Assembly: GCA_015060865.1 (NCBI GenBank)
Contig: SUXS01000012.1
Coordinates: 41,313 to 105,312 of the forward strand
Direction: 5' to 3'
DNA: 64,000 bases
From: Bacteroidales bacterium
GTDB taxonomy: Bacteria > Bacteroidota > Bacteroidia > Bacteroidales > Bacteroidaceae
Shown: positions 3,094 to 62,789 of the stretch, one piece after another
How positions within the stretch are numbered: position 1 is the first letter of the stretch
Layout of the letters: every line of letters starts with the position of its first letter
Program-made: the position numbers and the translations under genes
The notes under the pieces: generated by a model
What the model was told of the DNA's origin: nothing
Seen by the model: the letters and a program-made list of their open reading frames with translations, nothing else
The model's database searches: none

Positions 3094-3183
3094 TGGCGTG
3101 TGATTATCTATTTGTTCTCAGGGCTGACGCACTGGAAATATCTACAAAGATTATCATTTACTATCATAGAATCAGTTGTTTAT

Positions 3184-3233
3184 CCACGCGAATCTCGCAA
3201 ATCTCGCAGACCGACGCTAATGCTCCTCGTCGG
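3184..3233. repeat. solo 9-mer-repeat arm (CCACGCGAA TCTCGCAAA TCTCGCAGA) plus short hairpin, related to the 40-41 kb palindromic elements
   Basis: Direct match of the TCNCGCGAA x3 pattern to the left arms at 40273, 40672 and 41280. No inverted partner nearby. Followed by hairpin ccgacg..cgtcgg. Confidence 0.6.
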
Positions 3234-4668: not shown

Positions 4669-4750
4669 CCGTGAAGCGGGCCGAAAAGGAGAACATACAG
4701 TGTGGTGTCATCCTTACGTAGGGGAGGATCCCGCGCTGGGACTTGCACGA

Positions 4751-4790
4751 GCTTTGCGAGATTTTTCGCTGCGCTCAGAATGGCACGAGA
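4751..4790. repeat. copy of the CATTyyGAGC..AGCGA.AAATCTCGCAAA motif also present in the parB-parA spacer
   Basis: The reverse complement of 4751-4790 reads gccattctgagcgcagcgaaaaatctcgcaaag. Compare tcatttcgagcaaagcgagaaatctcgcaaac at 49482-49513. Confidence 0.5.
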
Positions 4791-4854
4791 CGTTTAGGAC
4801 ACCTACGATGGCATGACGTATCTTTATATCGCCCCACGCTTATTGTAGCCAACA

Positions 4855-11293: not shown

Positions 11294-12904
11294 ATGAGAA
11301 AAATTTTTACACTTTTCTTCATGTCGATGTTCCTGGTGATAGGAACAGCCATGGCGCAGGATGATAGCGCCGACTCACTTAAACTCACGTTTCTAAATCC
11401 TAAAGATGGTGCAATGGAAACTTCCGTCTACAATATCCGACTTCAGTTCAACAAGGACGTTACAGCCACCCTTCCCGAAGGCGGTATTGATGTCGTGAAC
11501 AACGATACCAAGGAGGTTGTCAAGATTACCCGCATCTACAAGGATGAATGGACACCTGCCAACACCGTGCTCTTCTATTTTGAGCAGAAGATGATGCCTG
11601 ACAAGGATGGAAAGGGCGAAGAACTGCAAGACCAGTATATTGATACTCCCGGCTCCTATAGCTATACCATCCCCGCCGGCTGCATCAAGAGTGTCGATGG
11701 TGAGGAGTTTGCTGAGCACACCTTCACATTCAGTGTTGTAGGTACTTTTGGTGTAGAGAGCTATTCACCTCAAACGACCAGTAAGTTGGAGAAGATACAG
11801 ATAACCTTTACTGAAGAGGTTACCGAGGTGATATTTCCCAATAGCGGTTTGCCCGTTGTAGACGGTTATTGGACTCCCGTATCGTGGGTTAAGAATGATG
11901 TTGTAATCAGTGAAGACAAGAAGACTGTTACTTTTGAACTCGAGGAACCTATCACCGCAGAAGGTACGTATGGCATCGATCTTTATCAGGGAACGTTTGT
12001 TGGTCCCAAGGGTATCAATACTTACAGTTCGCTCATGTTCAATGTTATCGACAGTAATCCTTCTTTCGTAACCAACTTCCAGGAGGGCGAGCGGGTAAAG
12101 GAAATCGGCAATCTTGAAATTACTTTCAGGAATGTTAGCGAGGTGAAGCTCGTAGAGGGTGCAGAGCCTGTTACCGCATATCTCCCCGGTGATGGCGAAG
12201 CTACAGGTAAGGCTGCTTTGGCCAATAATAGGATTACCGTTACCTTTGATCAGCAGTTTACCGAAGAGGGTGTCTATACCTTTGTAATTCCTGCTGGTAT
12301 GTTCACTATGGATGGCGTGCCCAACGAACCTCGTGAGATCAATATCACTCTTTTCACCTTCTCTATCATTCCGCTTGAGGTTGATAGCGTAATTCCCGCA
12401 ATGGGCACAGTAGATAAGCTCGACCGCATCATTGTCGTATACAACCAGGATGTAACCCTCTCTATGGATGAGAACTGGCAGCAGATCTCACGCGAGATTG
12501 CCCTTACTTGTGGTGATAAGGTATATACGCTGACCTATAACTCCATGTCGAACCTTAGCAACAAGATTGAGTATCTTGTTAATGCTCAGTGGACAGGTTA
12601 TGAGTACGAGTCAACACCTATCACAGAAGCAGGAACCTATACTTTGAATCTTGCTGATATTATTGTAGACCACGCAGTAGAGGATTATATTGATGAGTGG
12701 GGTTATCCCAACAAGATGTGGCACTCAAAGGGCAAGTCTTGCGAGGGTACCTACACTTGGACCATCAGTGGCGACAACGCTATCAAGGTTGTAGCTCCTG
12801 AGACTGGTGAGCAGGTTATCTACGACCTTCTTGGCCGTCGCATCGAGAAGATTGTTGGTGATGGTATCTATATCGTCAATGGCAAGAAAGTTGTGATTAA
12901 GTGA
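11294..12904 (+). CDS. secreted Ig-like-repeat protein with T9SS C-terminal sorting domain
   Basis: Signal peptide and repeated beta-rich modules. The C-terminus VIYDLLGRRIEKIVGDGIYIVNGKKVVIK is typical of Por/T9SS CTDs. Confidence 0.65.
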   Translation: MRKIFTLFFMSMFLVIGTAMAQDDSADSLKLTFLNPKDGAMETSVYNIRLQFNKDVTATLPEGGIDVVNNDTKEVVKITRIYKDEWTPANTVLFYFEQKMMPDKDGKGEELQDQYIDTPGSYSYTIPAGCIKSVDGEEFAEHTFTFSVVGTFGVESYSPQTTSKLEKIQITFTEEVTEVIFPNSGLPVVDGYWTPVSWVKNDVVISEDKKTVTFELEEPITAEGTYGIDLYQGTFVGPKGINTYSSLMFNVIDSNPSFVTNFQEGERVKEIGNLEITFRNVSEVKLVEGAEPVTAYLPGDGEATGKAALANNRITVTFDQQFTEEGVYTFVIPAGMFTMDGVPNEPREINITLFTFSIIPLEVDSVIPAMGTVDKLDRIIVVYNQDVTLSMDENWQQISREIALTCGDKVYTLTYNSMSNLSNKIEYLVNAQWTGYEYESTPITEAGTYTLNLADIIVDHAVEDYIDEWGYPNKMWHSKGKSCEGTYTWTISGDNAIKVVAPETGEQVIYDLLGRRIEKIVGDGIYIVNGKKVVIK

Positions 12905-13023
12905 GAGCAGAAGACTGCTTGTAGGCTTATGCCGAACGTGAACAACTAAAACGCAGTTAAAGTTGTGATTAAGTGAGAGCAGAAGACTGCTTGTAGGCTT
13001 ATGCCGAACGTGAACAACTAAAA
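12887..13023. repeat. 72-bp-period tandem duplication of the gene 3' end and its downstream sequence
   Basis: The 65 nt at 12887-12951 are repeated exactly at 12959-13023. A third degenerate copy of the last codons plus stop (aaaaagattgttaagtag) follows at about 13031-13048. Confidence 0.85.
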
Positions 13024-22408: not shown

Positions 22409-24823
22409 TTATGGTTCTATAATCAATCTATCATCTTCTAGTAATGGGGCGCTGAAGGTGAGCGTCACGGGTGCATCGCCATTGACTTGCACGTAGGCTA
22501 CGAGGTAGCCCTGGTAGGCGCGGCGCTGGCGTGCCTTGGGGTGGCTCATGTCGCTGTTGTCGGAGTTCTCGAGGCCCAGCAGGCGGGCAGGTCCCTCGAC
22601 CTGGCAAGAGATCATGTTGTCGGCCAGCTTCACGATGGTGCCCTGCTCATCGAGCACCTCCACGAGCACTTGTGCGGTGCCTCCTGCAGCCGACACCTCG
22701 GGCTCGAGCAGTGTGGCACGAAGCTGGTAGGGGCGATCGCTGGTGGTGATAGCATAGGTGGCCTGCAGGTTGCCCTCAGCATCGAAGCCCTCGGCGGTGA
22801 GGGTGCCGGGGCGGTACTCTACGTCCCAATGTATCATGCCGCTGTTGTCGTCGTAGGGGCGCATCTCGCCAATGACCTCGCCATTGAGCTTGAGCTGTGC
22901 CTTGGCGGTGTTGGTGTAGCATACCACGCGCACACGCTGTCCGTCGCGGTAGTTCCAGGTGTCGCCGGCATCGATGGAGAGCTGGTTGCCCCAGCGCCCA
23001 CGGCCTGTGCGGTAGGTGCCGATATAGATCATGGGCTTGTCGCTCCAGTGGGCCTCGCGGAACTTGCCGCGTCCCTTGGGGTAGTTGGCAAAGTTGAGCA
23101 GACCGGTGTGGAGGCCGCGTGAGGGCCATGCGCCTGACTCGCCGAGGTAGTCGGTGCCCGTCCAGATGAACTGGCCGAAGATGTGTTCCTTGTCGCGCAC
23201 GGCTTTCCAGGCACCGAAGTCGCTGCGGGTCTCGCTGCCGTAGATGATGCGCTCGGGGTATTTCTTATGGTCGGTGTCGTAGCGGTCCTCGGTGTAGTTG
23301 TAGCCTACCACGTCGACAGCTTCGGGATACTCGGTCTCGTTGCTCATGACCACACCTGCCAAGGCTCCCGTGACGGGACGTGAGGAGTCGATGGCGCGGA
23401 TGCAGGCTGCCAGGCGCTTGGCAATCTTGCCTATACGCTCGGCATGGGGACGCTCGGGGTCGTAACCGCCAAACATGGGCTGGCTGATGCTGCTGCCGTC
23501 GAGCACGGGGTGTGAGTAGGGGTCGTTGGGGTAGTCTACCTCATTGCCTACGCTCCAGAGGAACACGCTGGGGTGGTTGCGGTCGCGGCGCACGATGTCG
23601 GTGATGTCGCGCTCTATCCACTCTTCGAAGAAGTCGGCCGTGCCCTCAAAGCCGGGCTCGCCCTTGTTCCAGCCCTTTATCCACTTGCGCTTGGGGAACT
23701 CCCACTCGTCGCTGCCCTCGTCCATGATGAGCAGACCCAGCTCGTCGCACAGGTCATACACGATGGGGGCTTGCGGATTGTGGCTCATGCGGATGGCATT
23801 GGCTCCCATGGCCTTGAGCGACTCGAGGCGGCGGCGCCATACCTCGGGAGGCACTACGGCACCCAGCACACCGGCATCGTGGTGGAGGCATACGCCCTTG
23901 ACTTTCATGTTCTGTCCGTTGAGGGCAAAACCCTTGTCGGCACTGAAGTCGAGGGTGCGCAAGCCGGCACGGATCTCGGTATGGTCTATCACCTTACCGT
24001 CGGCAAGGAGCTCCACCTGCAGGGTGTAGAGGTAGGGGTCGTCGAGGTTCCAGCGGTGAGGGTTCTTTAATTGACAATTCACAATTGACAATTGACAATT
24101 GGTGGTGCTGGCTGCCACGCTGGCACTCTTGGTGGCAGAGGCTACCTTCTTGCCATCGGCATCGAGCATCGTGATGCGTGCCTGTACCTTCTGTGCCTGC
24201 GTGGTGTGGTTGTCTACAGCCACGTCGACCTCGATGGTGGCACTGCGGTCGGTAAGCTTGCTGGCGCGGTAGGCCACGCCCCACTGCGAGAGGTGCACGT
24301 CGGGGGCGCTGATGAGGTAGACGTCGCGGTAGATGCCCGAACCGGTGTACCAGCGCGAGTCGGCATAGCGGCTATGGTCGACGCGTACGGCAATGACATT
24401 GTCGCCGCCCTTGTTGAGGTAGGGGGTGAGGTCATACATGAACGATACGTATCCGTTGGGGCGGTGTCCCAGGTGGTGGCCGTTGAGGTATACATCGCTG
24501 CGGTTATACACGCCCTCGAAGTAGATGTAGTGGCGGGCGGCATCGTCGCCCACAGTAAAGGTCTTGCGATACCATCCTATGCCTCCGGGCAGGTAACCTG
24601 TGCAGCTGGCCAGCTCCTGCGAGGGAGCGCTCTCCACGCTCCAGTCGTGGGGCAGCTCCATGGGGCGCCAGCGGCTGTCGTCGTAGTCGGGCTTGCTGGC
24701 TGCACTGTCATCGCGGAGGATAAAGCGCCACCCAGTGTTGAACTTTTCGGCTTGGCCAAACGATACTTGAGCCGAGGCACCGAGGCCTATGAGGCTGACG
24801 AGGAGAGTGAGTAGTGTTCTCAT
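22409..24823 (-). CDS. glycoside hydrolase family 2 (beta-galactosidase/glucuronidase-like)
   Basis: Signal peptide, DDSRWRPMELPHDW, NAIRMSHNPQ, SVGNEV. Confidence 0.8.
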   Translation of the reverse strand: MRTLLTLLVSLIGLGASAQVSFGQAEKFNTGWRFILRDDSAASKPDYDDSRWRPMELPHDWSVESAPSQELASCTGYLPGGIGWYRKTFTVGDDAARHYIYFEGVYNRSDVYLNGHHLGHRPNGYVSFMYDLTPYLNKGGDNVIAVRVDHSRYADSRWYTGSGIYRDVYLISAPDVHLSQWGVAYRASKLTDRSATIEVDVAVDNHTTQAQKVQARITMLDADGKKVASATKSASVAASTTNCQLSIVNCQLKNPHRWNLDDPYLYTLQVELLADGKVIDHTEIRAGLRTLDFSADKGFALNGQNMKVKGVCLHHDAGVLGAVVPPEVWRRRLESLKAMGANAIRMSHNPQAPIVYDLCDELGLLIMDEGSDEWEFPKRKWIKGWNKGEPGFEGTADFFEEWIERDITDIVRRDRNHPSVFLWSVGNEVDYPNDPYSHPVLDGSSISQPMFGGYDPERPHAERIGKIAKRLAACIRAIDSSRPVTGALAGVVMSNETEYPEAVDVVGYNYTEDRYDTDHKKYPERIIYGSETRSDFGAWKAVRDKEHIFGQFIWTGTDYLGESGAWPSRGLHTGLLNFANYPKGRGKFREAHWSDKPMIYIGTYRTGRGRWGNQLSIDAGDTWNYRDGQRVRVVCYTNTAKAQLKLNGEVIGEMRPYDDNSGMIHWDVEYRPGTLTAEGFDAEGNLQATYAITTSDRPYQLRATLLEPEVSAAGGTAQVLVEVLDEQGTIVKLADNMISCQVEGPARLLGLENSDNSDMSHPKARQRRAYQGYLVAYVQVNGDAPVTLTFSAPLLEDDRLIIEP
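24069..24101. repeat. in-frame heptamer array (AATTGAC AATTCAC AATTGAC AATTGAC AATTG) inside the GH2 gene
   Basis: 33 AT-rich nt embedded in very GC-rich coding sequence. Translated on the minus strand as NCQLSIVNCQL. Confidence 0.85.
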
Positions 24824-27145: not shown

Positions 27146-27236
27146 CCTGAATTCTAAATTCTGAATTGTTCTTTTTAGTCTTTGACTTTGGCCCCTTCGG
27201 GCGTCGACCTTCGGCTCATCTTTCAACTTTCATCTT
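27146..27236. repeat. spacer element with heptamer arrays (CCTGAAT TCTAAAT TCTGAAT / CATCTTT CAACTTT CATCTT)
   Basis: Fills the spacer between the RSH start (27134) and the mltD-like stop (27230). Centre is ggccccttcgggcgtcgaccttcggc. Confidence 0.6.
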
Positions 27237-28624
27237 GGATAAATCTTCAGTCTCTTTCCTGCCACGATGCGGCTGGTGCGGAGGCCGTTCCATCGCTTGA
27301 GTTCGTTTACTGTCACGCGGTAGCGGCGTGCAATGGTCGAGAGGGTCTCTCCACTGCGTATCTTGTGGTAGATGAATCCGCTGTTGGTGGCTTGGTTTTT
27401 CAGAGTCTTCACCTTCTCCTCGGAGAAGTATTTCTCGCGGTCGTAGTTGTATATCGAGTCGCCCGAGAGGATGAAGGTGCGTATCTTGTCTTCGGGGAGG
27501 CGCAGCGCTCCGGGCAGGAACTTGCCCGGGATGACGTCTTCGCGGTACTGCGGGTTGAGGCCACGCAGTGTCTCCATGTCGATATCGCATACGGCTGCTA
27601 TCTGATCGAAGTGGAGCAGACGGTTTACCATGATGGTGTCGGTAGCTATAGGCAACTTGGGCTCCATGGGGCAGATGCCATGCTCGGCATGGTAGGTCAT
27701 GATGTAGGTGGCTGCAATGAAGGCAGGCACATAGCCGCGCGTCTCACGGGGCAAGTAGTAGTAGATGTCCCAAAAATTGGTCTTTCCGCCCGAGCGGTAG
27801 ATGGCCTTGTTCACGTTGCCCGAGCCGCAGTTGTAGGCTGCTATGGCCAGGCTCCAGTCACCGAAGCGGTCATAGAGGTCGCGCAGGTGCTTGGCTGCTG
27901 CCCAAGTGGCCTTCACGGGGTCGCGGCGGTCATCGACGAGGCTATTTTGCTTCAACCCGTAGAGCTTGCCTGTGCTGTACATAAACTGCCATAGGCCGGT
28001 AGCTCCAGCGCGAGATACGGCCACGGGGTTGAGGGCCGATTCGATTACCGGCAGGTACTTCAGCTCGTTGGGCACGCCATGCACGTCGAGTGCCTGCTCT
28101 ATGATGGGCTCGTAGTACTGCATCATACCCAGCATGTAAGATACCTGATGGCGCAGCTTCGTGGCGTAGCGGTCAATGCTGCTGCGCACGGGCTGATTGT
28201 ATACCATCTGCACCAGGCAGGGCAGGTTGGCCAGTCGCTCGGTGTATACCGTGTCGCTGAATGTGGGGTTGGTGGCTGTTGCCGTGCATGTGGTGTCCAC
28301 CATGAGGTAGGTCTGCGCATACCAACTGTTGAGTAGGCTATCGAGTTCGCCCGACATGCTCTCAATCACCACCAGCGAGTCGTCCTTGATGGTGGTCCAC
28401 TCCTCGGGGATGGGCTCGCGCTCCACTACGGGTAGTTCGGCTCTTGTCGTCTCCACGGCCTCTTCGGCGATGGTGTCCTGAGGGGCTACGGCTATATTTT
28501 CCACTTGTGGAGCCTGTGTCTCCACCGCTTTCTTCACTCCTCTGATGGGGAGTATTTTCTCGGAGCATCCGCATAGCACCACCAGTGCCATCAATGCCAT
28601 GTATATCGTCTTTTTCATTGTCAT
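27230..28624 (-). CDS. MltD-like lytic transglycosylase lipoprotein with C-terminal LysM
   Basis: Lipobox ALVVLCGC, SLT motif ESALNPVAVSRAGATGLWQFM, LysM YHKIRSGETLSTIARRYRVTVNELKRWNGL. Confidence 0.8.
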   Translation of the reverse strand: MTMKKTIYMALMALVVLCGCSEKILPIRGVKKAVETQAPQVENIAVAPQDTIAEEAVETTRAELPVVEREPIPEEWTTIKDDSLVVIESMSGELDSLLNSWYAQTYLMVDTTCTATATNPTFSDTVYTERLANLPCLVQMVYNQPVRSSIDRYATKLRHQVSYMLGMMQYYEPIIEQALDVHGVPNELKYLPVIESALNPVAVSRAGATGLWQFMYSTGKLYGLKQNSLVDDRRDPVKATWAAAKHLRDLYDRFGDWSLAIAAYNCGSGNVNKAIYRSGGKTNFWDIYYYLPRETRGYVPAFIAATYIMTYHAEHGICPMEPKLPIATDTIMVNRLLHFDQIAAVCDIDMETLRGLNPQYREDVIPGKFLPGALRLPEDKIRTFILSGDSIYNYDREKYFSEEKVKTLKNQATNSGFIYHKIRSGETLSTIARRYRVTVNELKRWNGLRTSRIVAGKRLKIYPR

Positions 28625-28648
28625 TAAACGCTTTTCGGGAATATCCTA

Positions 28649-28680
28649 CAAAGATAGCGCAAGGCGAGCGAAATGCCAAA
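28649..28680 (-). promoter_or_regulatory. promoter of the mltD-like gene
   Basis: CAAAgaTA at 28649-28656 and CAAA at 28677-28680 on the plus strand, 20-nt spacer. Confidence 0.6.
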
Positions 28681-29159
28681 TTTATTTGAGCATTTCCGAG
28701 CCGCCGCCTATCTTCTGCTTGCTGAGCAGGCTAAAGATACAACAACTGACGCATGAGCGAGCGAGAACCAAGCTCGCTTGGGTTCTTGTAGCAAGCGAAA
28801 AGGAAGAAAGAGAAGCTAAGCCGAGAGGAGAACAAAATAAATTCATTTATTTTTATCCCGAGGCGCAGTGTATCTTCTGCGATGAAATCGCTAAAATTAG
28901 TACAAGGCGAGAGAAAACGCAAATTTATTTAATTATATTTTCTTCCTTGTCACTCGGCTAAGATAAAGATGAACACTTATCTTCGCTTTCGTTCCTGTGT
29001 CAGTTGCAGTTTCCCGCCGACGCGGGATAATCGTCGGTTGCGGCGACTGCCGGTTTATCGGCACAAAGAAGTGCGACAAAGTCGCCATTAGCCTAATTTC
29101 AAGCTGTAAAACAGATTAAAATTAAGCCAAACGAAAAAGCAAATTTCAGACCATAAAAG

Positions 29160-32469: not shown

Positions 32470-33531
32470 ATGGCCAAGATGACTCCCAAGCAGCTGGCAG
32501 ATAAGCTGCGCTTCGCTGGCGAGGCGATACCTTCGATGACACGCCGTCGTGATGGACACGACTACGAAGCGCGGCAGATGTACCTCATCACAATCACGGT
32601 AGAGGGGCGTAGGCCCCTGCTTGGGCGTGTGGTGGGCAATCCTGAAGCTGCCGAAGGAGCCCCCGATGCTCCGCACATCGAGCTGTCGCCTCTTGGAAAG
32701 GCGGTAGAGCAGCAGTGGATAGCCATCAGCCATTACCACCCCGAAGTGAAGGTGCTTGCCTTGCAGATGATGCCCGACCATCTGCATAGCATCCTCTTCG
32801 TCAAGGAGCGCATGCCGCAGCACTTAGGACATATCATCAAAGGCTTCAAGGCCAGCACCAATAAGGAGTACCGGCGGCTCATAGCTCCCGCTCCTTCGAG
32901 TGCCGTTCCTGTTGTCTCCTCGGCTGCGACGCCGTCGCAGCGAACGGGAAGGCCCAAACCCGACCGCAAGCATGGCCTGCTCTGGAGCATTGGCTACACC
33001 GACGGCATCCTTGGCCGCAAAGGCCAGCTCAACAACTGGCTTGCCTACCTGCGCGACAACCCTCGTCGCCTACTCATGAAGCGCCTGCATCCCGAGTTCT
33101 TCCGCGTGCAGCGCAATGTGCTGGTAGGCTGCTATGAGTTTTCTGCCATCGGCAACCGCTATTTGCTGTCGCATCCCGTACGTTTGCAGGTGCAATGCTC
33201 GCGCCGCCTCACCCAAGAGGAGATTGCGCAGCAGACGAGCTACTACCTGGGATTGGCCAAGCGTGGGGCAGTACTCGTGTCGCCCAGCATCTCGCCCGGC
33301 GAGAAGGCCATCATGCGTGCCGCCTTCGATGCAGGCTACCCACTCATCCTCCTGCAGGAGAATGGCTTCACCGAACTGGCCAAGCCGGGCGGTGCCCGCT
33401 TCGACGCCTGCGCCGAAGGCCGCCTGCTCATCCTCGCTCCATGGGAGCATCACAATCAGCGCCTTGCCATTAATCGCAGCCAATGCCTCTCGCTCAATGA
33501 TATGGCTCGGGCCATTTGCGAGGGGGACTGA
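32470..33531 (+). CDS. IS200/RAYT-like HUH (Y1) protein with a C-terminal extension
   Basis: YLITITVEGRRPLLG, HUH motif MMPDHLHSILFV, WSIGYTDGIL and tyrosine motif AYLRDNPRRLL. An extra ~130 aa follows. No terminal inverted repeats or flanking hairpins seen. Confidence 0.7.
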   Translation: MAKMTPKQLADKLRFAGEAIPSMTRRRDGHDYEARQMYLITITVEGRRPLLGRVVGNPEAAEGAPDAPHIELSPLGKAVEQQWIAISHYHPEVKVLALQMMPDHLHSILFVKERMPQHLGHIIKGFKASTNKEYRRLIAPAPSSAVPVVSSAATPSQRTGRPKPDRKHGLLWSIGYTDGILGRKGQLNNWLAYLRDNPRRLLMKRLHPEFFRVQRNVLVGCYEFSAIGNRYLLSHPVRLQVQCSRRLTQEEIAQQTSYYLGLAKRGAVLVSPSISPGEKAIMRAAFDAGYPLILLQENGFTELAKPGGARFDACAEGRLLILAPWEHHNQRLAINRSQCLSLNDMARAICEGD

Positions 33532-35880: not shown

Positions 35881-36060
35881 TTTCGTTTTTATTCTTTTTC
35901 GTGTTCGTTTTGCCTGTTTAGACGCACGTCGTATGCAAAAACTACGTGCATCCTTCTATTAGACGTAACGAAAGCCTGAAAAGTTGCAAATGGTTGCAAA
36001 AAAAAGCGCGATTGAGCTAAATATGAAATAATGTTTGATGAAACACAAGTTTCATCGCTG

Positions 36061-36092
36061 CAAAGTTAGTGCAAACCGAGCGAAATGCCAAA
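36061..36092 (-). promoter_or_regulatory. promoter with long leader for the 33565..35880 receptor gene
   Basis: CAAAgtTA at 36061-36068 and CAAA at 36089-36092, 20-nt spacer. Same cassette as at 28649. Confidence 0.55.
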
Positions 36093-36365
36093 ATATGTTT
36101 TGAGTATTTCCGAGGCGCAGCCTAACTTCTTCTTGCAAAGCAGGATAAAGATACTGCAAAGCATAGTGAAAGTATGACAATTCTCGTTAATAATCTACAA
36201 ATAGTCAAGCGTTTTTATTGCCGTTTCGCTCGCTTCTACTTATCTTTGAGATAAATCTCGAAGATAATGTACATTCGCTGTGAAAAATATTCAAGCAAGC
36301 TTGATATTTCTCGCTCATTTATTCTTATCTTTGCATCTGAGTATTAACCGTAAAAGCACACGACT

Positions 36366-37730: not shown

Positions 37731-37830
37731 TCTCCCCGATTAGGCTGTCCGGTTGTCCTTGCCTCTTATAAGCAGATGATCCTCAACATATAAGCAAGGG
37801 CAGCCTTGGGATACCCGAGGTTGTCCTTGC
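37731..37830. repeat. GGCTGTCC composite repeat, copy 1 (49-nt box plus hairpin)
   Basis: tctccccgattaggctgtccggttgtccttgcctcttataagcagatga, then hairpin gcaagggcagccttggg..cccgaggttgtccttgc. Confidence 0.75.
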
Positions 37831-37853
37831 TTGCTTTTAGACACGTAATGTCG

Positions 37854-39277: not shown

Positions 39278-39373
39278 TCTCCCCGATTAGGCTGTCCGGC
39301 TGTCCTTGCCTTTTATAAGTAGATGAACCTCTGCAAATAAACAAGTACAGCCTCGGGTGTCCCGAGGCTGTAC
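39278..39373. repeat. GGCTGTCC composite repeat, copy 2
   Basis: tctccccgattaggctgtccggctgtccttgccttttataagtagatga, then hairpin gtacagcctcggg-tgt-cccgaggctgtac. Confidence 0.75.
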
Positions 39374-39397
39374 TATGACAGATTGTGCTTATAGCAT

Positions 39398-39598: not shown

Positions 39599-40080
39599 CG
39601 CTGCTCCTTTCTCTCGCGATGCATGGCGAGGTTAAATTTCACGATGTACAGCATCAGGTAGAGATACATCGTTAAGAACATAAAGGTGAGGAATTCTAAA
39701 TCATAGACGAAGAGAATGCCCATCGCCAATACAATAGACGTAGCCCAAGTACTCCACACAAACGACTGCATGCGGATGTGCGCTGTCATCTCATCCTCGT
39801 CCTGCTCACGCGAAAGGGCGATGAATACAAGCGAAGCGAGAAGGCCGAGCATTGCAATCTCTTCGATAAGGCTAGTCTCTGTCATGCGGAACCAACCTTC
39901 ATGGCTGATTACAGCCGGCACCGTAGCATTGATGCAAATATTCACAAGCACGTCGCTGTCGCACAAGCAAAGCACACTGAGCACTAAGAACGGCACCACC
40001 ATCCAAAGCCCTGTTTTCTTAAAGCCTACAGGTAACAAATAACTCTTCTTCATAGCATACATTTTTTTGAGGTTGTACAT
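39595..40080 (-). CDS. multi-pass membrane protein co-transcribed with the XRE regulator
   Basis: Four hydrophobic segments and a 4-nt overlap with the XRE gene. The start must lie below the -7 box at 40114. ATGs at 40080, 40062 and 40053 are all possible. Confidence 0.6.
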   Translation of the reverse strand: MYNLKKMYAMKKSYLLPVGFKKTGLWMVVPFLVLSVLCLCDSDVLVNICINATVPAVISHEGWFRMTETSLIEEIAMLGLLASLVFIALSREQDEDEMTAHIRMQSFVWSTWATSIVLAMGILFVYDLEFLTFMFLTMYLYLMLYIVKFNLAMHRERKEQR

Positions 40081-40113
40081 TAAATAAAACTCTCTTACGT
40101 AAGATTCACGCCG

Positions 40114-40121
40114 CAAAGGTA
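40114..40121 (-). promoter_or_regulatory. -7 box of the membrane-protein/XRE operon
   Basis: CAAAggTA on the plus strand. Confidence 0.55.
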
Positions 40122-40272
40122 AGTATATTTTCCGTAATGACAAATATATTTTACATTTTATCGCGCAAACTTTATATTTTTTCTCTTCCGAATAAGTGAA
40201 ATGGATAAGAGATGCAATATGATTTCTTCCGATAAAGACATCTTATTCTTTCTCTCTTTTGACATGTTTTCC

Positions 40273-40391
40273 TCACGCGAATCTCGCGAATCACGCGAAA
40301 ACATACATCGCTATCGCTTGTATGTGGCCATCCGGATGGCAAACGCGAGTGAAACAATGCGTTTTTCGCGTGATTCGCGAGATTCGCGTGA
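40273..40391. repeat. palindromic element PAL1: perfect 29-bp inverted arms of three 9-mers enclosing three small hairpins
   Basis: tcacgcgaa tctcgcgaa tcacgcgaa aa at 40273-40301 is the exact reverse complement of 40363-40391. The interior holds cataca..tgtatg, the perfect palindrome GCCATCCGGATGGC (40327-40340), and aacgc..gcgtt. Confidence 0.9.
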
Positions 40392-40506
40392 AACATAAAC
40401 AGCGTGAAACTCAAATGTTTTCATAATGTATCTTCTTAGAGCGGACAAGCAGAACACTTTCAGTCGATGGTACGGAAAGTTCTGCGCCGCTTCTCTAATT
40501 CTTCAA

Positions 40507-40586
40507 ATATCCACGGATATTTACTTACGTATCCATGGATATTTCATCACGTATCCGTGGATATTTCATTACGTATCCACGGTTAC
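40507..40586. repeat. array of four TATCC-RY-GGATA palindromes with exact 22-bp phasing
   Basis: Dyad centres at 40513/14, 40535/36, 40557/58 and 40579/80 (atatccacggatat, gtatccatggatat, gtatccgtggatat, gtatccacggttac). Confidence 0.85.
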
Positions 40587-40671
40587 GCAAGTTTTTCTAT
40601 ACTGAAAACTTGCTTTTCGGGCAAATATTTCGTAACTTTACGGAGTAAACAGCGAAACTATTCGATAAGGC

Positions 40672-40808
40672 TCACGCGAATCTCGCAAATCACGCAAAGA
40701 GCACGCGCATTCGCTTGTGCTTGCCATCCGGCGCGAACACTCGGCGGAATCGCCGACAAACGCGAGCGAAGCGATGCGTTCTTCGTGAGATTCGTGAGAT
40801 TTGTGTGA
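40672..40808. repeat. palindromic element PAL2 (9-mer arms, GCCATCCGG core)
   Basis: Arms 40672-40700 and 40780-40808 pair with 22 Watson-Crick pairs, 4 G-U pairs and 3 mismatches when read as plus-strand RNA. Confidence 0.85.
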
Positions 40809-40868
40809 GGCAACAAAAAGATAAGCTTTTGCGTGAAACAAAAAAGAATTACATAAAACCAGAATACG

Positions 40869-41255
40869 ATGAAAGCAAAGGATCCACTATCATACAAGAT
40901 TATCGGTTGTGCGATGGAGGTGTACAACACGTTAGGGCCAGGGCTGCTGGAAGCCGCTTACGAGAAAGCTCTGATCCACGAATTGGAACTTAACGGATTA
41001 TCCGTAGCCTCGCAGGTGCCAGTGGAGATGAATTATAAAGGGGTGAACTTGGGAGAAGGTTTGCGGCTGGACCTGCTCGTGGAGGATTCCATCATCATAG
41101 AGCTAAAGTCCGTAGAGGAACTGAAGCCTGTACACTACAAGCAGTTGCTCACGTACCTCAAACTGATGGACAAACGTATAGGATTGCTCATCAATTTCAA
41201 CGTTTACGATTTCCGTGAGGGGATTAAGCGGGTTGTCAACGAATTCAAGGACTGA
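40869..41255 (+). CDS. GxxExxY protein (TIGR04256-like, PD-(D/E)xK superfamily)
   Basis: YKIIGCAMEVYNTLGPGLLEAAYEKALIHEL (G-LL-E-AA-Y) and DLLVEDSIIIELKSV. Confidence 0.8.
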   Translation: MKAKDPLSYKIIGCAMEVYNTLGPGLLEAAYEKALIHELELNGLSVASQVPVEMNYKGVNLGEGLRLDLLVEDSIIIELKSVEELKPVHYKQLLTYLKLMDKRIGLLINFNVYDFREGIKRVVNEFKD

Positions 41256-41279
41256 TATGCCGCTTGCATAACGTATTCC

Positions 41280-41418
41280 TCACGCGAATCTCGCGAATCT
41301 CGCAAAGAGCACGCGCATTCGCTTGTGCTTGCCATCCGGCGAGAACACACTCGGCGGAATCGCCGACAAACGCGAGCGCAGCGATGCGTTCTTCGTGAGA
41401 TTCGCGAGATTCGCGTGA
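41280..41418. repeat. palindromic element PAL3, direct repeat of PAL2
   Basis: Differs from PAL2 by 7 substitutions and one 2-nt indel. Arms pair with 27 Watson-Crick pairs, 1 G-U and 1 mismatch. Confidence 0.85.
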
Positions 41419-41474
41419 GACAAAAAGTAAGGAATAAGCTTTTGCGTGAAAAAGAATTATTAAACTAAGATATT

Positions 41475-42098
41475 ATGGCAAAATACATCAAACAAGAATT
41501 CAAGAGCATCAATGACGACAGTGAGAACAAGGCATACTATCGCATGGAGACGTCGCGTCGGGTGACGATGGCCGAGTTTGTTAAGGAAATCTCTATCCCG
41601 GGCTATGGCATCAGCGAGGCCACGGCAGTGCAGGTGCTCAGTCAGGCCGCCACATCGCTGGCCCGCCTCATGGCACACGGCTGCGCCGTGACGATTGACG
41701 GCATTGGCACCTTCAAGGCCACGATAGGCGTGTGCGAAGACAAGGAGCAGGATGCGTTTGTGGAGAACGAGCCGCAGCGCAATGCACAGAGCATCGAGGT
41801 GAACGGCGTGCACTACCGAGCCGACAAAGCGCTGGTGAAGGCCGTGCGCAGCCAATGCACGCTCGAGCGTGGCCAGCAGAGCCGCATCAAGCGCTCGCCC
41901 TACACGATGGAGGAGCGCATCAGTCGCGCCATTGCCTTCATCGAAGAGCACGGCTATATGCGCACTCGCGACTATGCTAATCTGAACGAGCTGTCCCTGT
42001 CGACCGCCACCGTGGAGCTACGCAAGGTGCGCAAGGAAGAGGCTTCGGGCATCCGCGCCATCGGGCGGGGAAGCAGCTTGGTTTATGTGAAGGGGTGA
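41475..42098 (+). CDS. HU_HIG-type histone-like DNA-binding protein with C-terminal winged-helix-like tail
   Basis: KAYYRMETSRRVTMAEFVKEIS..VQVLSQAATSLARLMAHGCAVTIDGIGTFKATIG. Confidence 0.7.
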   Translation: MAKYIKQEFKSINDDSENKAYYRMETSRRVTMAEFVKEISIPGYGISEATAVQVLSQAATSLARLMAHGCAVTIDGIGTFKATIGVCEDKEQDAFVENEPQRNAQSIEVNGVHYRADKALVKAVRSQCTLERGQQSRIKRSPYTMEERISRAIAFIEEHGYMRTRDYANLNELSLSTATVELRKVRKEEASGIRAIGRGSSLVYVKG

Positions 42099-42267
42099 GG
42101 AGAGGATTTCTCTACGAAGGCGCAAAGGAGCACTACATCCTCGACATCGAGCACAAGAGAGAGGCCGTGAAAGTGGTGCGAGCACTGGAGCAGGCCTTGC
42201 CTTATCCCAAACCAAAGAAAAAGAAGGGATAGAGGGGTAGCTGCGCTTACACCAAATGTAAATCTTC

Positions 42268-42367
42268 AAGGACAGCCCAAGGACAGCCCAGGCTGTCCTT
42301 GCTTATTTACTGACATTCTTTCGATTATGCCTTGTAAGGACAGCCGGACAGCCTATTCGGGAAAAAG
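42268..42367. repeat. GGCTGTCC composite repeat, copy 3 (inverted orientation)
   Basis: Hairpin caaggacagcc-caaggacagccc-aggctgtccttg, then ccttgtaaggacagccggacagcctattcgggaaaaag, which is the reverse complement of the copy 1/2 box. Confidence 0.75.
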
Positions 42368-49333: not shown

Positions 49334-49675
49334 AGTTGAAAGTTGAAAGATGAAAGTTGAAAGTAGGCTTTGCGATGTGTTCCCTGCCGGATGGTAATAA
49401 TCTTTCTTCTTTCACTTTTCAGCGTTTCATTTTTTTTAAGTTATTTTGGTAATAATATAGATGTTGTCCAAAACGTCCCGTGTCATTTCGAGCAAAGCGA
49501 GAAATCTCGCAAACGTCTCATGCTAAGTTCCAGCGAGGGATACCTCGGCGCTTCGCTTTGTCGGCATGACACCAACGCTGAGATTTTAGTGTTAGTGGAC
49601 AACTGCTATATTATCTCCGTTATTTTTCTGAGTTGGAAGTAGGAAAACTTTCATCTTTCATCTTTCCACTTTCAA
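49334..49675. repeat. nested palindromic element filling the parB-parA spacer
   Basis: Outer heptamer arms agttgaaagttgaaagatgaaagttgaaagt (49334-49364) and aactttcatctttcatctttccactttcaa (49647-49675). Inner inverted repeats atatagatgttgtcca / tggacaactgctatat and gtgtcatttcgagcaaagcga / tcgctttgtcggcatgacac. tgccggatgg core at 49385-49394. Confidence 0.8.
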
Positions 49676-50433
49676 TTTTTTTTAATGATTTCTTGCGCCA
49701 AAGTCAGGTAGTTCTGTGCCCCCTTAGACTCGGCATCGTAGAGGATGGCGGGGATGCCGTGGCTGGGGGCTTCGCTGAGGCGTACGTTGCGCTGGATGAC
49801 GGTGTCGAACACCAGCTCCTGGAAGTGGCGGCGTACCTCGTCGAGCACCTGATTGCTCAGACGCAGGCGCGAGTCATACATCGTGAGCAGGAAACCCTCG
49901 ATGCTGAGGCCGGGGTTGAGCTTCGACTTGATAATCTTGATGGTATTGAGCAGCTTGCTGATACCCTCCAAGGCGAAGTACTCGCACTGGACGGGGATAA
50001 TAACCGAGTCAGCAGCAGTAAGGGCATTGACGGTGATGAGTCCTAACGAGGGCGAGCAGTCAATGAGGATGTAATCGTACTCTTCATAGAAAGGCTTGAG
50101 CATGCTTTTTAGAATATTCTCACGATTGTCGAGATTTAGCATCTCGATTTCAGCTCCTACTAGGTCGATATGTGAGGCTATCACTTCCAGACCCTCTATG
50201 TCAGTGGTATAGATAGCTTCTTTGGGGTCGCGCCCGTCAATAAGACATTCGTATATAGAGCAATCTACATTGCGTATGTCCACGCCTAATCCCGATGAGG
50301 CATTGGCCTGTGGGTCAGCATCTATCAGTAATACTTTTTTTTCTAATGTAGCCAATGACGCAGCAAGGTTAATGGCTGTAGTAGTCTTACCTACACCACC
50401 TTTCTGATTGGCTAATGCTATAACTTTTCCCAT
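49672..50433 (-). CDS. parA: chromosome partitioning ATPase ParA/Soj
   Basis: Deviant Walker A NQKGGVGKTTT. 253 aa. Confidence 0.93.
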   Translation of the reverse strand: MGKVIALANQKGGVGKTTTAINLAASLATLEKKVLLIDADPQANASSGLGVDIRNVDCSIYECLIDGRDPKEAIYTTDIEGLEVIASHIDLVGAEIEMLNLDNRENILKSMLKPFYEEYDYILIDCSPSLGLITVNALTAADSVIIPVQCEYFALEGISKLLNTIKIIKSKLNPGLSIEGFLLTMYDSRLRLSNQVLDEVRRHFQELVFDTVIQRNVRLSEAPSHGIPAILYDAESKGAQNYLTLAQEIIKKN

Positions 50434-51500: not shown

Positions 51501-54248
51501 TTACTTCAATTTTGACAGACTTTCCTTAATCGCAGCAATCTTGCTCTCGGCATCGGCCTGTTTCTTGCGCTCGGCGGCGACAACGGCCTCGGGTGCATTG
51601 CTTACAAAGCGTTCGTTGGAAAGTTTCTTCATCACTGAGTTGAGGAATCCTTCGAGATAGGTGAGCTCGGCCTGTAGCTTGGCAACTTCGGCCTCTACAT
51701 CGATGAGGCTGCCCAAAGGTACGGCATACTCGGTGGTGCCTACCATGAATGATGAGGTACCCTCGCTCTTGGCTTCTACTACATTGATAGCTTCGAGGTT
51801 GGCCATCTTCTCTATAATTGCATTGTAGGTAGCTACAGCGTGATTGCCTACCACTTCAAGGCTGAGCGCCTCCTTCTGCGCGATGTTCTTCTGCAAGCGG
51901 ATGGTGCGCACGCCACTGATGATGCTCTTTACGGTCTCGATGTCGGCTATGAGCTGCTCGTCGTACTTGTCGGCAAAAATCTTTACGCTTTGTGTCATGA
52001 TGCTCTCGCCGGGCTTGCGTTCCTCGATAGCTTGCCACAACTCTTCGGTGATGAAGGGCATGAAGGGGTGGAGCAGGCGCAGCAGGGCGTCGAAGTAGTG
52101 AAGTGTAGCATCGTAGGTCTGCTTGTCGATAGCACAACCGTAGGCGGGCTTCACAATCTCAAGATACCAGCTGGAGAACTCATCCCAGAACAGGCGGTAT
52201 ATAGCCATCAGTGCCTCGCTCAAGCGGTACTTGCTCATCAGGTCGTCCACCTCGAGGGCTGTCTTGGTGAGCATAGCATCGAACCACTGGCAACCCAAGC
52301 GGGCAGCCTCGGGCTGAGCGATGGTGGCATCTACATTCCAACCCTTCACGAGGCGGAAGGCGTTCCAAATCTTGTTGTTGAAGTTACGGCCCTGCTCGCA
52401 GAGTGCATCATCGAAGAGGATGTCGTTGCCGGCAGGAGCGCAGAGCATCATACCCATACGCACGCCATCGGCACCATACTGGGCGATGAGGTCGAGCGGG
52501 TCGGGCGAGTTGCCGAGGCTCTTCGACATCTTGCGTCCCAGCTTGTCGCGTACGATACCGGTGAAGTATACATTCTTGAATGGCATGTCGCCCTTGTACT
52601 CGTAGCCTGCCATAATCATACGTGCTACCCAGAAGAAGATGATGTCCGGGCCGGTCACCAGGTCTGAGGTGGGGTAGTAGTAGTTGAGTTCGGCATTGTC
52701 GGGGTTGTTGATACCGTCAAACAGTGAGATGGGCCACAGCCATGATGAGAACCAAGTGTCGAGGGCATCCTCGTCCTGACGCAGCTCGGCAGCTGTGATA
52801 TTCTCGTATCCCTCTATCTTGCGGGCCAACTCAACGGCTTCGTCAATGCTCTCGGCTACTACGAAGGTCTCTTCGCCACCCTCTGCTGTGGGCAGGAAGT
52901 AGGCCGGTATGCGGTGTCCCCACCAGAGTTGGCGGCTGATACACCAGTCTTGTATGTTTTCCAACCAATTGTTGTAGGTGGTCTTGTACTTGGCGGGGTA
53001 GAACTTGAGTTCGTCGTTCATTACGGGCGGCAGGGCGATGTCGGCAAAGTGCTGCATGCGGAGGAACCACTGCATGCAGAGACGCGGCTCAACGGCCGTG
53101 TCGGCATTGCGCTCCGAGTAGCCCACCTTGTTGTCGTAGTCTTCCACCTTCTCGAGCAGACCAGCAGCTTCGAGGTCCTTGGCGATGAGGCGGCGCACCT
53201 CCATGCGGTCCTTGCCTACATAGAGTCCGGCTTCCTCGCTCAGTGTGCCGTCGGGGTTGAAGATGTCGATAGTCTCCAGATTGTGCTTCTTGCCCAGCAT
53301 GTAGTCATTGGTGTCGTGAGCAGGAGTCACCTTCAAGCATCCTGTACCGAACTCGATGTCTACGTAGCGGTCCTCGATGACGGGAATCTCACGACCTACG
53401 AGCGGTACGATGACCTTCTGTCCCTTGAGCCAAGTGTTCTTGGGGTCCTTGGGGTTGATACACATGGCCGTGTCGCCCATGATGGTCTCGGGGCGAGTGG
53501 TAGCCACTACGGCATAGTAGCCTTTCTCGTCTTTGTGTATAACGTTGTCGAGTTGAAAGTTGAAAGATGAAAGTGGAGAGTGGCCGTCCGGATGGCAACT
53601 TTCATCTGTCATCTTTCCACTTTCCACTTGTCCTACCACATAATACTTCAAGTAATATAGCTTGCTCTTCTCCTCCTTGTAGATTACCTCTTCGTTGGAG
53701 AGGGCAGTCTGTGCCTTGGGGTCCCAGTTTACCATGCGCAGACCGCGGTAGATAAGGCCCTTGTTGTAGAGGTCTACGAATACCTTGATGACGCTTGCGC
53801 TACGCTTCTCGTCCATGGTGAAGGCCGTACGGTCCCAGTCGCATGATGCACCCAGCTTACGCAGTTGCTTGAGGATGATGCCGCCGTGCTCGTCGGTCCA
53901 CTCCCAAGCATGCTTGAGGAACTCCTCACGGGTGAGGTCGCTCTTCTTGATGCCCTGTTCGGCGAGCTTCTTCACCACCTTGGCTTCGGTAGCGATAGAG
54001 GCATGGTCGGTACCCGGTACCCAGCAAGCATTCTTGCCCAGCATACGTGCGCGGCGCACGAGAATATCCTGAATGGTATTGTTGAGCATGTGGCCCATGT
54101 GGAGCACACCCGTCACGTTGGGTGGGGGGATGACCACTGTATAGGGCTCGCGTCCGTCGGGCTCAGAGTGGAAGAGTTTGTTGTCTAACCAATATTGATA
54201 CCATTTACCCTCAACATCCGTGGGGTTGTATTTGCTTGCTAGTTCCAT
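51501..54248 (-). CDS. valS: valine--tRNA ligase
   Basis: HIGH-type motif [19 protein letters not shown]-terminal coiled coil. Carries an in-frame palindromic insert. Confidence 0.95.
53551..53628. repeat. heptamer-arm palindromic element inside the valS reading frame
   Basis: agttgaaagttgaaagatgaaagtggagagtgg - ccgtccggatgg - caactttcatctgtcatctttccactttccact. Same arm sequence as the parB-parA element and same GCCGTCCGGATGGC core as PAL1. Confidence 0.85.
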
Positions 54249-54443
54249 AGATTATATGTCGTTTATATACATTTATTCAAATTGGGTACAAAATTAGTGC
54301 AAAAAATCGATTTAGCGAAGACAATACATATTTACTTGTATTGTTGAACGTGAGAAATTTAGTTCAGACAAGCGAAAAAGCTAATTTGCTAATTATATTT
54401 TCTACCAGGTATTAAGGCACATGTCTAAACGGTTCTTATGCTC

Positions 54444-62650: not shown

Positions 62651-62785
62651 GTCAACAGACAACAGTCAACGGTCAACGGACTTGCCTTCCGGGATGTTGC
62701 TGTTTGGTTATTGATTTCTTTTCACTTCTATGGTCAATAGCCACAAGTCGCGTCAGGATGGGACTGTAGAGCATTGACCGTTGAC
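62651..62785. repeat. spacer element with GTCAACR heptamer array and inverted partner
   Basis: gtcaaca gacaaca gtcaacg gtcaacg g (62651-62679), core gccttccgggatg (62684-62696), inverted ttgaccgttgac (62774-62785). Confidence 0.65.
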
Positions 62786-62789
62786 TATA

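Follow-up and report, generated by a model that had tools for sequence, protein, structure and literature searches.

The 64,000-nucleotide stretch analyzed here (the window; contig SUXS01000012.1, positions 41,313 to 105,312) comes from a Bacteroidales genome and carries tandem-arm hairpin elements at a density of about 8 per 64 kb. Each element is an imperfect hairpin of 80 to 170 nucleotides (nt), with a stem of tandem 7- or 9-nt units and inverted-repeat arms 20 to 35 nt long. A preliminary description of the window had proposed that such elements share a conserved core while their arms differ in sequence and unit length. We report that this core is the conserved apical module of lineage-specific dispersed hairpin repeats. 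JGI and ENA metagenome contigs encode identical ParB and ValRS proteins, and among species representatives the nearest is a metagenome-assembled genome (MAG) from roe-deer colon; the host lineage consists of uncultured Bacteroidaceae of ruminant or herbivore guts.

PAL1, a hairpin with 9-mer arms at 40273..40391 (this and the elements that follow are given on the + strand), has two arms, 40273-40301 and 40363-40391, that are complementary at 29 of 29 positions. Its interior forms three local hairpins, P2 (ACATACA..TGTATGT), P3, which is the core, and P4 (AAACGC..GCGTTT), and the predicted RNA fold has an energy of -72 kcal/mol (z = -9.4). The 9-mer-arm element c2 (40671..40809) lies 60 nt upstream of a GxxExxY gene, and its direct-repeat copy c3 (41279..41419) lies across that gene, 56 nt upstream of an HU-HIG gene; in both, a half-core, CTTGCCATCCGG (40720-40731 in c2, 41328-41339 in c3), is followed by a small hairpin, which in c2 reads TCGGCGGAATCGCCGA. 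The elements with 7-mer arms comprise a GTTGAAA / TTTCANC hairpin in the parA-parB spacer (49334..49430), with a right half-core CCGGATGGTAA at 49387-49397; an element in frame within valS, a gene on the minus strand (53549..53630, residues 207-233); and a GTCAACR hairpin that fills the prfA-pyrF intergenic space (62651..62786), with half-core CTTGCCTTCCGG at 62681-62692 and a possible second half-core, CAGGATGGGAC, about 70 nt downstream of the first. Tandem Repeats Finder recovered three copies of TCACGCGAA at 40273-40299, with the complement at 40365-40391 and likewise at 40672 and 41283; AGTTGAA units at 49334-49364 (x4.4 / CTTTCAT) and 53551-53574 (x3.4); and CAACAGA x4.1 at 62653-62681. 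A gapless scan returned 18 hairpins in the window versus 2 in a shuffled copy.

All six cores quoted in the preliminary description were found where it had placed them: GCCATCCGGATGGC in PAL1 (40327-40340), GCCGTCCGGATGGC in the valS copy (53583-53596), GCCATCCGGCG in c2 and c3 (40723-40733 and 41331-41341), TGCCGGATGG in the parA-parB spacer element (49385-49394) and GCCTTCCGGGATG in the GTCAACR element (62684-62696). The pattern GCCNTCCGG matched seven times at five loci in the window, two of which are palindromic and were each counted on both strands, whereas 1.28 matches were expected from dinucleotide-preserving shuffles and none of 100 shuffles gave seven. All five loci sit within long inverted repeats with tandem-repeat arms. 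The shared block proved to be longer than first noted, extending over approximately 18 to 20 nt as (G/T)GCC(A/G)TCCGGATGG(C/T)AA, and is itself a palindrome of two TTGCCATCCGG half-sites that overlap at CCGG. The full core of PAL1, GTGGCCATCCGGATGGCAAAC (40323..40343, + strand), includes a perfect 14-nt palindrome at 40327-40340 and matches that of the valS copy, GTGGCCGTCCGGATGGCAAC (53579-53598), at 19 of 20 aligned positions, the single difference being A/G. Despite these near-identical cores, the arms of the two elements (CGCGAA 9-mers in PAL1, GTTGAAA 7-mers in valS) are unrelated. The copies at 40723, 41331, 62684 and 49385 hold a single half-site only, CTTGCCNTCCGG or CCGGATGGTAA, and the core of the 62684 copy is off-centre, adjoining the left arm.

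In order to place these counts in a wider context, we searched 249 kb of the lineage (the 64-kb window plus about 185 kb of related contigs, designated below by L numbers) with the core-site pattern CC[AG]TCCGGA[CT]GG. It occurred eight times, compared with 0.06 expected; all eight occurrences, representing six independent loci, lay inside tandem-arm hairpins. In 1.4 Mb from 79 other Bacteroidales species, the same pattern was found once, versus 0.33 expected, and GCCNTCCGG occurred at chance frequency and never within a hairpin. The preliminary description would have been undermined by a core that occurs at chance level and mostly lacks inverted tandem flanks; in the window and its lineage we found the opposite, since the core is enriched and every lineage copy lies in a hairpin. 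Chance is excluded as the origin of the shared core.

Four arm types share the core, namely, TCNCGCGAA 9-mers, GTTGAAA/GATGAAA 7-mers, GTCAACR 7-mers and, in L359, AATTGAC 7-mers, which bears out the proposal of one apical module carried on unrelated arms. Three more full cores were detected outside the window: one caps an intergenic GATGAAA-arm hairpin (L087:1749-1848), one belongs to a 7-mer element within mazG (L235:~9520-9600), and one lies next to AATTGAC arms within mfd (L359:8390-8575). The 9-mer family, consisting of PAL1, c2, c3, a PAL1 homologue with diverged arms at L091:8707-8828 and two copies in L104, is predicted to fold as a four-way junction in which a stem P1, with three 9-mers per arm, encloses P2, P3 (the core) and P4 (AAACGC..GCGTTT), with energies of -72 to -92 kcal/mol (z of -7 to -11). 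The sequence of P2 splits this family into two subfamilies (ACATAC/GTATGT versus AGCAC/GTGCT), with pairing kept in both. The 7-mer family is a discrete repeat of approximately 85 nt, of which five copies (window valS, L235 valS, L235 mazG, L087 and window parAB) align over their full length, with a GGAGAG spacer 5' of the core and a right arm that directly abuts it. The proposal that the centre is conserved and the arms vary finds its strongest support in PAL1 versus L091, compared below; within a family, however, the arms are conserved along with the rest of the repeat, as in the five 7-mer copies. Such conservation indicates ordinary repeat families with a shared tip rather than one element with free arms. 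The arm unit of the L359 mfd element also forms an AATTGAC x4.7 heptamer array in the window (24069-24101), within the minus-strand open reading frame (ORF) 22409-24823, and CTTGCCATCGG lies about 50 nt downstream of this array.

These alignments bear on whether the elements move at all. If the hairpins instead grew in place by replication slippage and template switching, the shared core would be a product of convergence or chance. A single arm-like unit is present at each empty site (GAGTTGAAAC at L235 parA/parB, GAGGTGGAGAAT at basal mazG and GAGAATGTTGAG at basal valS), tandem LEN.. repeats occur in the ValRS loops of other lineages, and all three 9-mer units of L091 have changed in concert, all of which would suit growth in place. 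However, about 85 nt, with the asymmetric spacer and a terminal CTCGAG among them, are common to 7-mer copies that sit at unrelated loci; the identical 20-nt core exceeds chance, as counted above; and the insert in L358 valS has two further copies 7 kb away. This multi-locus homology largely refutes growth in place, which we consider highly improbable.

The comparison of PAL1 with L091, which occupy non-orthologous loci, suggests what is constrained in the 9-mer family. Approximately 41% of arm positions differ, compared with about 6% of interior positions (4/62), so that the arms have changed about six times faster. Ten stem pairs are altered on both sides, and nine of these still pair. Every CGCG of the left arm of PAL1 is CACA in L091, and every CGCG of the right arm is TGTG, in all three 9-mer units, while c2 has G.T intermediates with G on the left and T on the right. 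These compensatory and concerted changes indicate a pairing constraint on the stem and a sequence constraint on the interior, core included. Hypermutability of CpG was rejected as the sole cause of the arm divergence, since the interior CpGs are all kept between PAL1 and L091 and the left and right changes are complementary. The concerted change of the L091 units fits the earlier idea that arms expand by slippage or are copied from a template, but does not amount to a demonstration of it.

Taken together, we assign a probability of roughly 0.5 to the reading that these are dispersed hairpin repeats with pairing-only stems and a sequence-specific palindromic tip, probably read by a protein, and that descent or an exchange of tips connects the arm families. 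Because sequence is constrained in the tip, whereas the stems need only to pair, it is the tip that a protein most likely reads, on a folded single strand. Spread or upkeep would then proceed through a single-strand hairpin intermediate, as is thought for REP/REPIN sequences; the arm families would have a single ancestor or trade tips, and the arms would be remodelled by slippage and arm-to-arm copying. The sole visible candidate for the reader is a fusion of Y1 HUH and DprA-like domains encoded by ORF 32470.

The same folds could act instead in RNA, as processing or stability stems in operon transcripts or, for the 9-mer family, in 5' leaders, with a GC-rich palindromic tip that nucleates folding or binds a protein and with spread being secondary. 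The very stable folds (z = -7 to -11), the compensatory changes with their G.T intermediates, and the four-way junction whose P2 differs yet pairs across subfamilies are consistent with such a role, as is the presence of copies within the co-transcribed pairs parA-parB, prfA-pyrF and valS with its downstream gene. Furthermore, c2, c3 and L091 each lie approximately 55 to 65 nt upstream of a start codon and have a common spacer, TTTGCGTGA..AAAAAGAATT; in view of this placement, the 9-mer family may have a leader or promoter role. However, the only matches to Rfam at the gathering score in the window were to tRNA-Met, and a permissive search of 40150-41500 gave as its best match Cyano-2, at 23 bits compared with a gathering score of 40. 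A terminator scan of 40000-41600 remained at background level, and the parA-parB spacer lacks a U-tract on the transcriptionally downstream side of its hairpin, the T-runs being on the non-transcribed strand. The neighbouring genes are functionally unrelated, and the stems of copies lying in frame in coding sequence are degraded in ways that avoid stop codons. Of the six window elements, five have their better fold on the + strand, with PAL1 equal on both, but the + strand is rich in G+T throughout the window, and elsewhere the orientation of the core bears no fixed relation to which strand folds better. We therefore read the asymmetry as compositional and rejected it as a sign of a functional strand. 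On balance, an RNA function as the primary role of the elements appears unlikely.

Whether copies differ between strains or relatives could be followed at several sites. The parA-parB spacer measures 348 nt in the window but 11 nt in L235, whose ValRS is 96% identical, and c2 is replaced by 15 nt in the strain contig L104, the flanks of which are 93 to 97% identical to the window. Insertion polymorphism, which the preliminary description had put forward as a check, is thus evident, and to judge from these alignments copies have been gained or lost recently. The GxxExxY / PDDEXK_3 gene (40869-41255), although bracketed by the direct repeats c2 and c3, is kept in L104 without c2; its PD-(D/E)XK product was therefore set aside as a candidate mobilizing nuclease.

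The copy in valS lies in a loop that varies widely. Residues 207 to 240 of the window ValRS have no counterpart in T. thermophilus ValRS, and the element encodes 27 of them (207-233). The insert is missing from close relatives of 896 amino acids (aa); among proteins 90 to 99% identical to that of the window, at least eight unrelated inserts were counted in this loop, which is empty in the 896-aa form, and the DNA of the inserts in relatives forms distinct strong hairpins of -59 to -80 kcal/mol. This insertion hot spot lies between the motifs YYLKYYV and (V/I)IHKD, at residues ~205-240 (window 53529-53630), and receives hairpin-coding inserts of 11 to 45 aa; in the relatives L087, L088, L089, L357, L358 and L359, it is located at 10592-10770. 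The two extra copies of the L358 insert are in a VapE-like ORF (L358:3084-3164 and 3777-3878).

Other housekeeping proteins are affected in a similar manner. MazG is 285 aa long in L235 versus 254 aa in L088 and L357, and the inserted peptide, KEESVKMKDESCRPDGNNSPLSSVNLQLEK, resembles the ValRS insert, with identical frame and orientation. The opposite strand of the coding insert contains TGA in every frame, and GTGGAAA or GATGACA variants in coding copies remove stop codons at the cost of stem mismatches. Compared with E. coli Mfd, that of L359 (1177 aa) is extended at the N terminus by approximately 78 residues and probably carries an in-frame copy. An exhaustive phmmer search with a 34-aa query for further in-frame copies returned only repetitive giant proteins.

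Elements also supply gene ends. In L001 (12739-12875), L089 (12781-12874), L357 (12751-12888) and L359 (12691-12831), valS takes its final codons and its stop from a hairpin with ATTTACA arms located exactly at the stop; no such hairpin is present in the window, L087 or L088. In Bacteroides intestinalis (L050:12649-12726) and Segatella copri (L055:12701-12793), the corresponding site directly after valS is filled by tandem-arm hairpins of unrelated sequence. Within the window, a solo CTTTCAT/CTTTCCA 7-mer array at the parA end of the parA-parB spacer (49640..49676, + strand) contains the parA stop codon, and a solo 7-mer array, GATGAAAGTTGAAAGATGA (27216..27236, - strand), forms the last codons and stop of the SLT/LysM ORF 27230-28624. 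Solo 9-mer arm units, CCACGCGAA TCTCGCAAA TCTCGCAGA, are present at 3183..3210 (+ strand) with no partner arm. Copies thus occupy tight intergenic gaps of operons and provide stop codons, and permissive loops of housekeeping proteins tolerate them in frame. T-runs flank the intergenic 7-mer copies on both sides and are ambiguous as target-site duplications. The valS DNA of MAG RGIG4179 (L001) is 97.6% identical to window 51523-54284, with a neighbouring gene at 79% and the rest not syntenic, a pattern that recombination, a chimeric bin or valS transfer could explain.

ORF 32470 (32470..33531, + strand), called RAYT-like in the preliminary description, encodes a protein of 353 aa with an N-terminal Y1 HUH domain of the IS200/RAYT-like type and a DprA-like, single-strand-DNA-binding C-terminal domain. 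The motifs MPDHLHS (HLH) and AYLRDNP (Y..NP) are invariant in 31 homologues. The match to NCBIfam REP_Tyr_transpos (E = 6e-8) scored 32.7 bits, below the cut-off of 80; that to Pfam Y1_Tnp (E = 0.0026) was likewise below its cut-off, and no Pfam family exceeded threshold for this protein. In an AlphaFold model (pLDDT 77), however, Foldseek aligned the N-terminal domain with ISDra2, IS608 TnpA and the RAYT structure 4er8 at target TM-scores of 0.52 to 0.66, and the C-terminal domain matched DprA and ShosA. The motifs and the model matches to IS200/IS605 TnpA and RAYT uphold the assignment to the Y1 HUH fold, and on this model it is plausible that the protein is an enzyme for single-stranded DNA hairpins. 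The family comprises more than 6000 homologous clusters, some of them called RayT by JGI, and the fusion is a conserved single-copy protein of Bacteroidales.

We then considered how far the tandem-arm hairpins and their tip extend beyond the window. In 84 Bacteroidales loci, 17 of 242 hairpins have periodic arms (period 6 to 9), with mutually unrelated sequences. Among these loci, no periodic-arm hairpin outside the window's lineage contains the core; L001 and L087, which belong to the set, do carry it. Core-less hairpins with ATTTACA or AATTCAG arms occur in close relatives. A viral scan with GTTGAAAGTTGAAAG yielded about 10 IMG/VR contigs in which GTTGAAA-arm hairpins end in different tips and an intact core is absent throughout; one of these, L163, resembles a member of the 7-mer family that has lost the middle of its core. 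Viral scans for the P4 motif gave 0 matches, and those for the junction of core and right arm gave 120, all in unrelated coding sequence; blastn of PAL1 against plasmid and phage collections gave no match. A metagenome scan for GTGGCCNTCCGGATGGCAA returned 25 matches, approximately the number expected by chance, of which only L091 and L104 were real, showing that the collection barely samples this lineage. The tandem-arm architecture is therefore widespread and the tip is specific to this lineage; since core-less tandem-arm hairpins are common, the tip is not needed for the architecture.

This distribution is also what a different origin of the core might produce. The core itself could be a tiny mobile REP-like palindrome of approximately 20 nt that inserts into tandem-arm hairpins already in place, a feature general to Bacteroidales, at their single-stranded tips, in which case the arms differ as the hosts differ and not by evolution of the arms. 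In keeping with such an origin, core-less tandem-arm hairpins are present in B. intestinalis, S. copri, many MAGs and close relatives, while the core is limited to one lineage. The tetranucleotide GTGG precedes the palindrome in PAL1, L091 and the window and L235 valS copies; the L235 copy, which has CTAC on the opposite side, reads GTAG-CCATCCGGATGG-CCAC, like a "double-foot" REP (PMC6006769). In c2, c3 and the 62684 copy, moreover, half-cores and extra hairpins join exactly at the CCGG centre, which suggests that the tip is a hot spot for nesting. However, no stand-alone core was found in the 249 kb of lineage, and in the five 7-mer copies the core is inherited together with the GGAGAG spacer and the right arm next to it. 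The core-less L163 retains the outer bases of the core (TGGC..TAAC) and looks like a deletion derivative rather than an empty host. The GT[AG]G foot is missing in 6 of 10 copies; GTTG, CTGG or CTTG stands in its place in mazG, L087, c2, c3 and 62684. We regard an independently mobile core as possible but doubtful.

A broader proposal takes the tandem-stem hairpins as an element class common to Bacteroidales and handled by the Y1 HUH-DprA protein. In this lineage, the enzyme or a partner would recognize a specific palindromic tip, and each event would reconstruct the stems through slippage and arm-to-arm copying, partly from target sequence; the tip alone would carry heritable identity. If true, this would represent a mode of propagation unlike terminal-repeat-defined and REP-type mobilization, and it would explain the frequent in-frame insertions in essential genes, such as those at the ValRS hot spot. 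We consider this extension decidedly unlikely.

Several observations weigh against our preferred reading, in which hairpin repeats with pairing-only stems are identified by a protein-read tip. Neither a target-site duplication nor sharp termini could be defined at the c2, valS and mazG copies or at the valS-stop element, because the filled and empty site pairs are too diverged. The core drifts in coding copies, reading GGACGG in window valS and CHQDGH in P0044. The analysis comprises about 10 independent copies in total, none of them from a complete genome scan. Core-less tandem-arm hairpins are common in relatives and in other Bacteroidales, as described above. With regard to the candidate reader, which had been proposed as the enzyme of the elements, no linking evidence was obtained: no hairpin flanks ORF 32470, the gaps of 36 and 33 nt at its sides are hairpin-free, the gapless scan found no hairpin between 13158 and 37792 and none within about 4 kb of the ORF, and its family is far more widespread than the lineage-confined core. 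The tie between this protein and the repeats is one that we only infer.

The window contains further repeats. A family with 19-nt terminal inverted repeats and a GTCATTTCGAGCAAAGCGAGAAATCTCGC-type interior is represented at 49452-49614, nested within the parA-parB spacer, and at 4724-4801, and also in L358 just after valS and in L359 (5036-5239). Between PAL1 and c2 lies a 22-nt tandem repeat, TATCCATGGATATTTCATTACG x3.3 (40508-40579), present also at L088:6957-7045 and L104:769-869, each unit of which has a 12-nt palindrome and is iteron-like. Another dispersed family of approximately 100 nt (36050-36340 and 28643-28740) is shared with relatives at 78 to 87% identity (L001:7350-7584 and 9888-9961; L088:7212-7398 and 9805-9960). 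A 72-nt tandem duplication is perfect (12887-13023; 1.9 copies, 100% identity). Finally, a hairpin motif at gene ends, GGACAGCC/GGCTGTCC (AAGCAAGGACAGCC..GGCTGTCCTTGCTT), recurs at 37792-37832, 39290-39374 and 42258-42353 and may be a family of terminator-like hairpins.

Whatever their mechanism, the tandem-arm elements give rise to rapid protein-length polymorphism in essential genes (ValRS, MazG and, probably, Mfd) and variation of operon spacers in abundant gut bacteria. They are therefore relevant to strain typing, to gene calling in MAGs and to the tolerance of palindromes in coding DNA.

The preliminary description held that no described class of repeat fits these elements. This was too strong, in that dispersed palindromes and in-frame insertions behave like REP, Rickettsia palindromic element (RPE) and Correia-like sequences; the elements fit no family definition, and the unusual part is the combination of tandem-repeat stems with a shared tip, of which our literature search found no description. 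The resemblance to the REP/REPIN-RAYT system lies in a short GC-rich palindrome dispersed mainly between genes, in a genome that encodes a Y1 HUH protein with HUH and Y..NP motifs, and, for some copies, in the GTGG at the palindrome's foot. REP sequences inserted in frame have been documented (subclass 2.4; PMC6006769), and Quentin et al. (2018) noted "atypical secondary structures" around Bacteroidetes Y1 genes (PMC6006769). In contrast to REP, the palindrome here is only the tip of a longer stem of tandem 7- or 9-mers, with all eight lineage cores embedded and none alone; no copies flank the Y1 gene and no REPtron is present; and the Y1 protein, a member of a widespread family present in single copy, has a DprA-like domain at its C terminus.

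The elements also resemble MITEs (miniature inverted-repeat transposable elements) and Correia elements in being non-autonomous, bounded by inverted repeats, approximately 100 to 150 nt long, intergenic and polymorphic between strains, and the 9-mer family may carry outward regulatory sequence. They differ in that no target-site duplication was found here and in that, across families, conservation peaks at the centre and not at the termini. No parent insertion sequence with the same termini was seen in the window or related loci. By behaviour, though in another phylum and with no sequence relation expected, the coding copies resemble RPEs, as palindromic repeats of approximately 80 to 170 nt that lie in frame in essential genes at permissive surface sites and add a peptide without destroying the protein, here in ValRS, MazG and probably Mfd. 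The stems of RPEs are not known to be tandem repeats, nor are RPE families known to share a tip.

Hairpins that are read at the tip include the ssoA single-strand origins, with their CS-6 loop, and the Rep origins of rolling-circle and CRESS replicons, with a conserved loop nonamer and iterons, HUH enzymes being involved in the Rep cases. A possible analogy lies in a conserved apex, a stem in which only the pairing is conserved, and short tandem repeats beside or within the stem. They are, however, single functional origins of plasmids or viruses, whereas the elements described here are dispersed chromosomal repeats. If the tip is indeed the recognition element, these would be dispersed bacterial palindromes for which the apex, and not the ends or the foot, confers identity, and the widespread, uncharacterized Y1 HUH-DprA protein of Bacteroidales would acquire a function.

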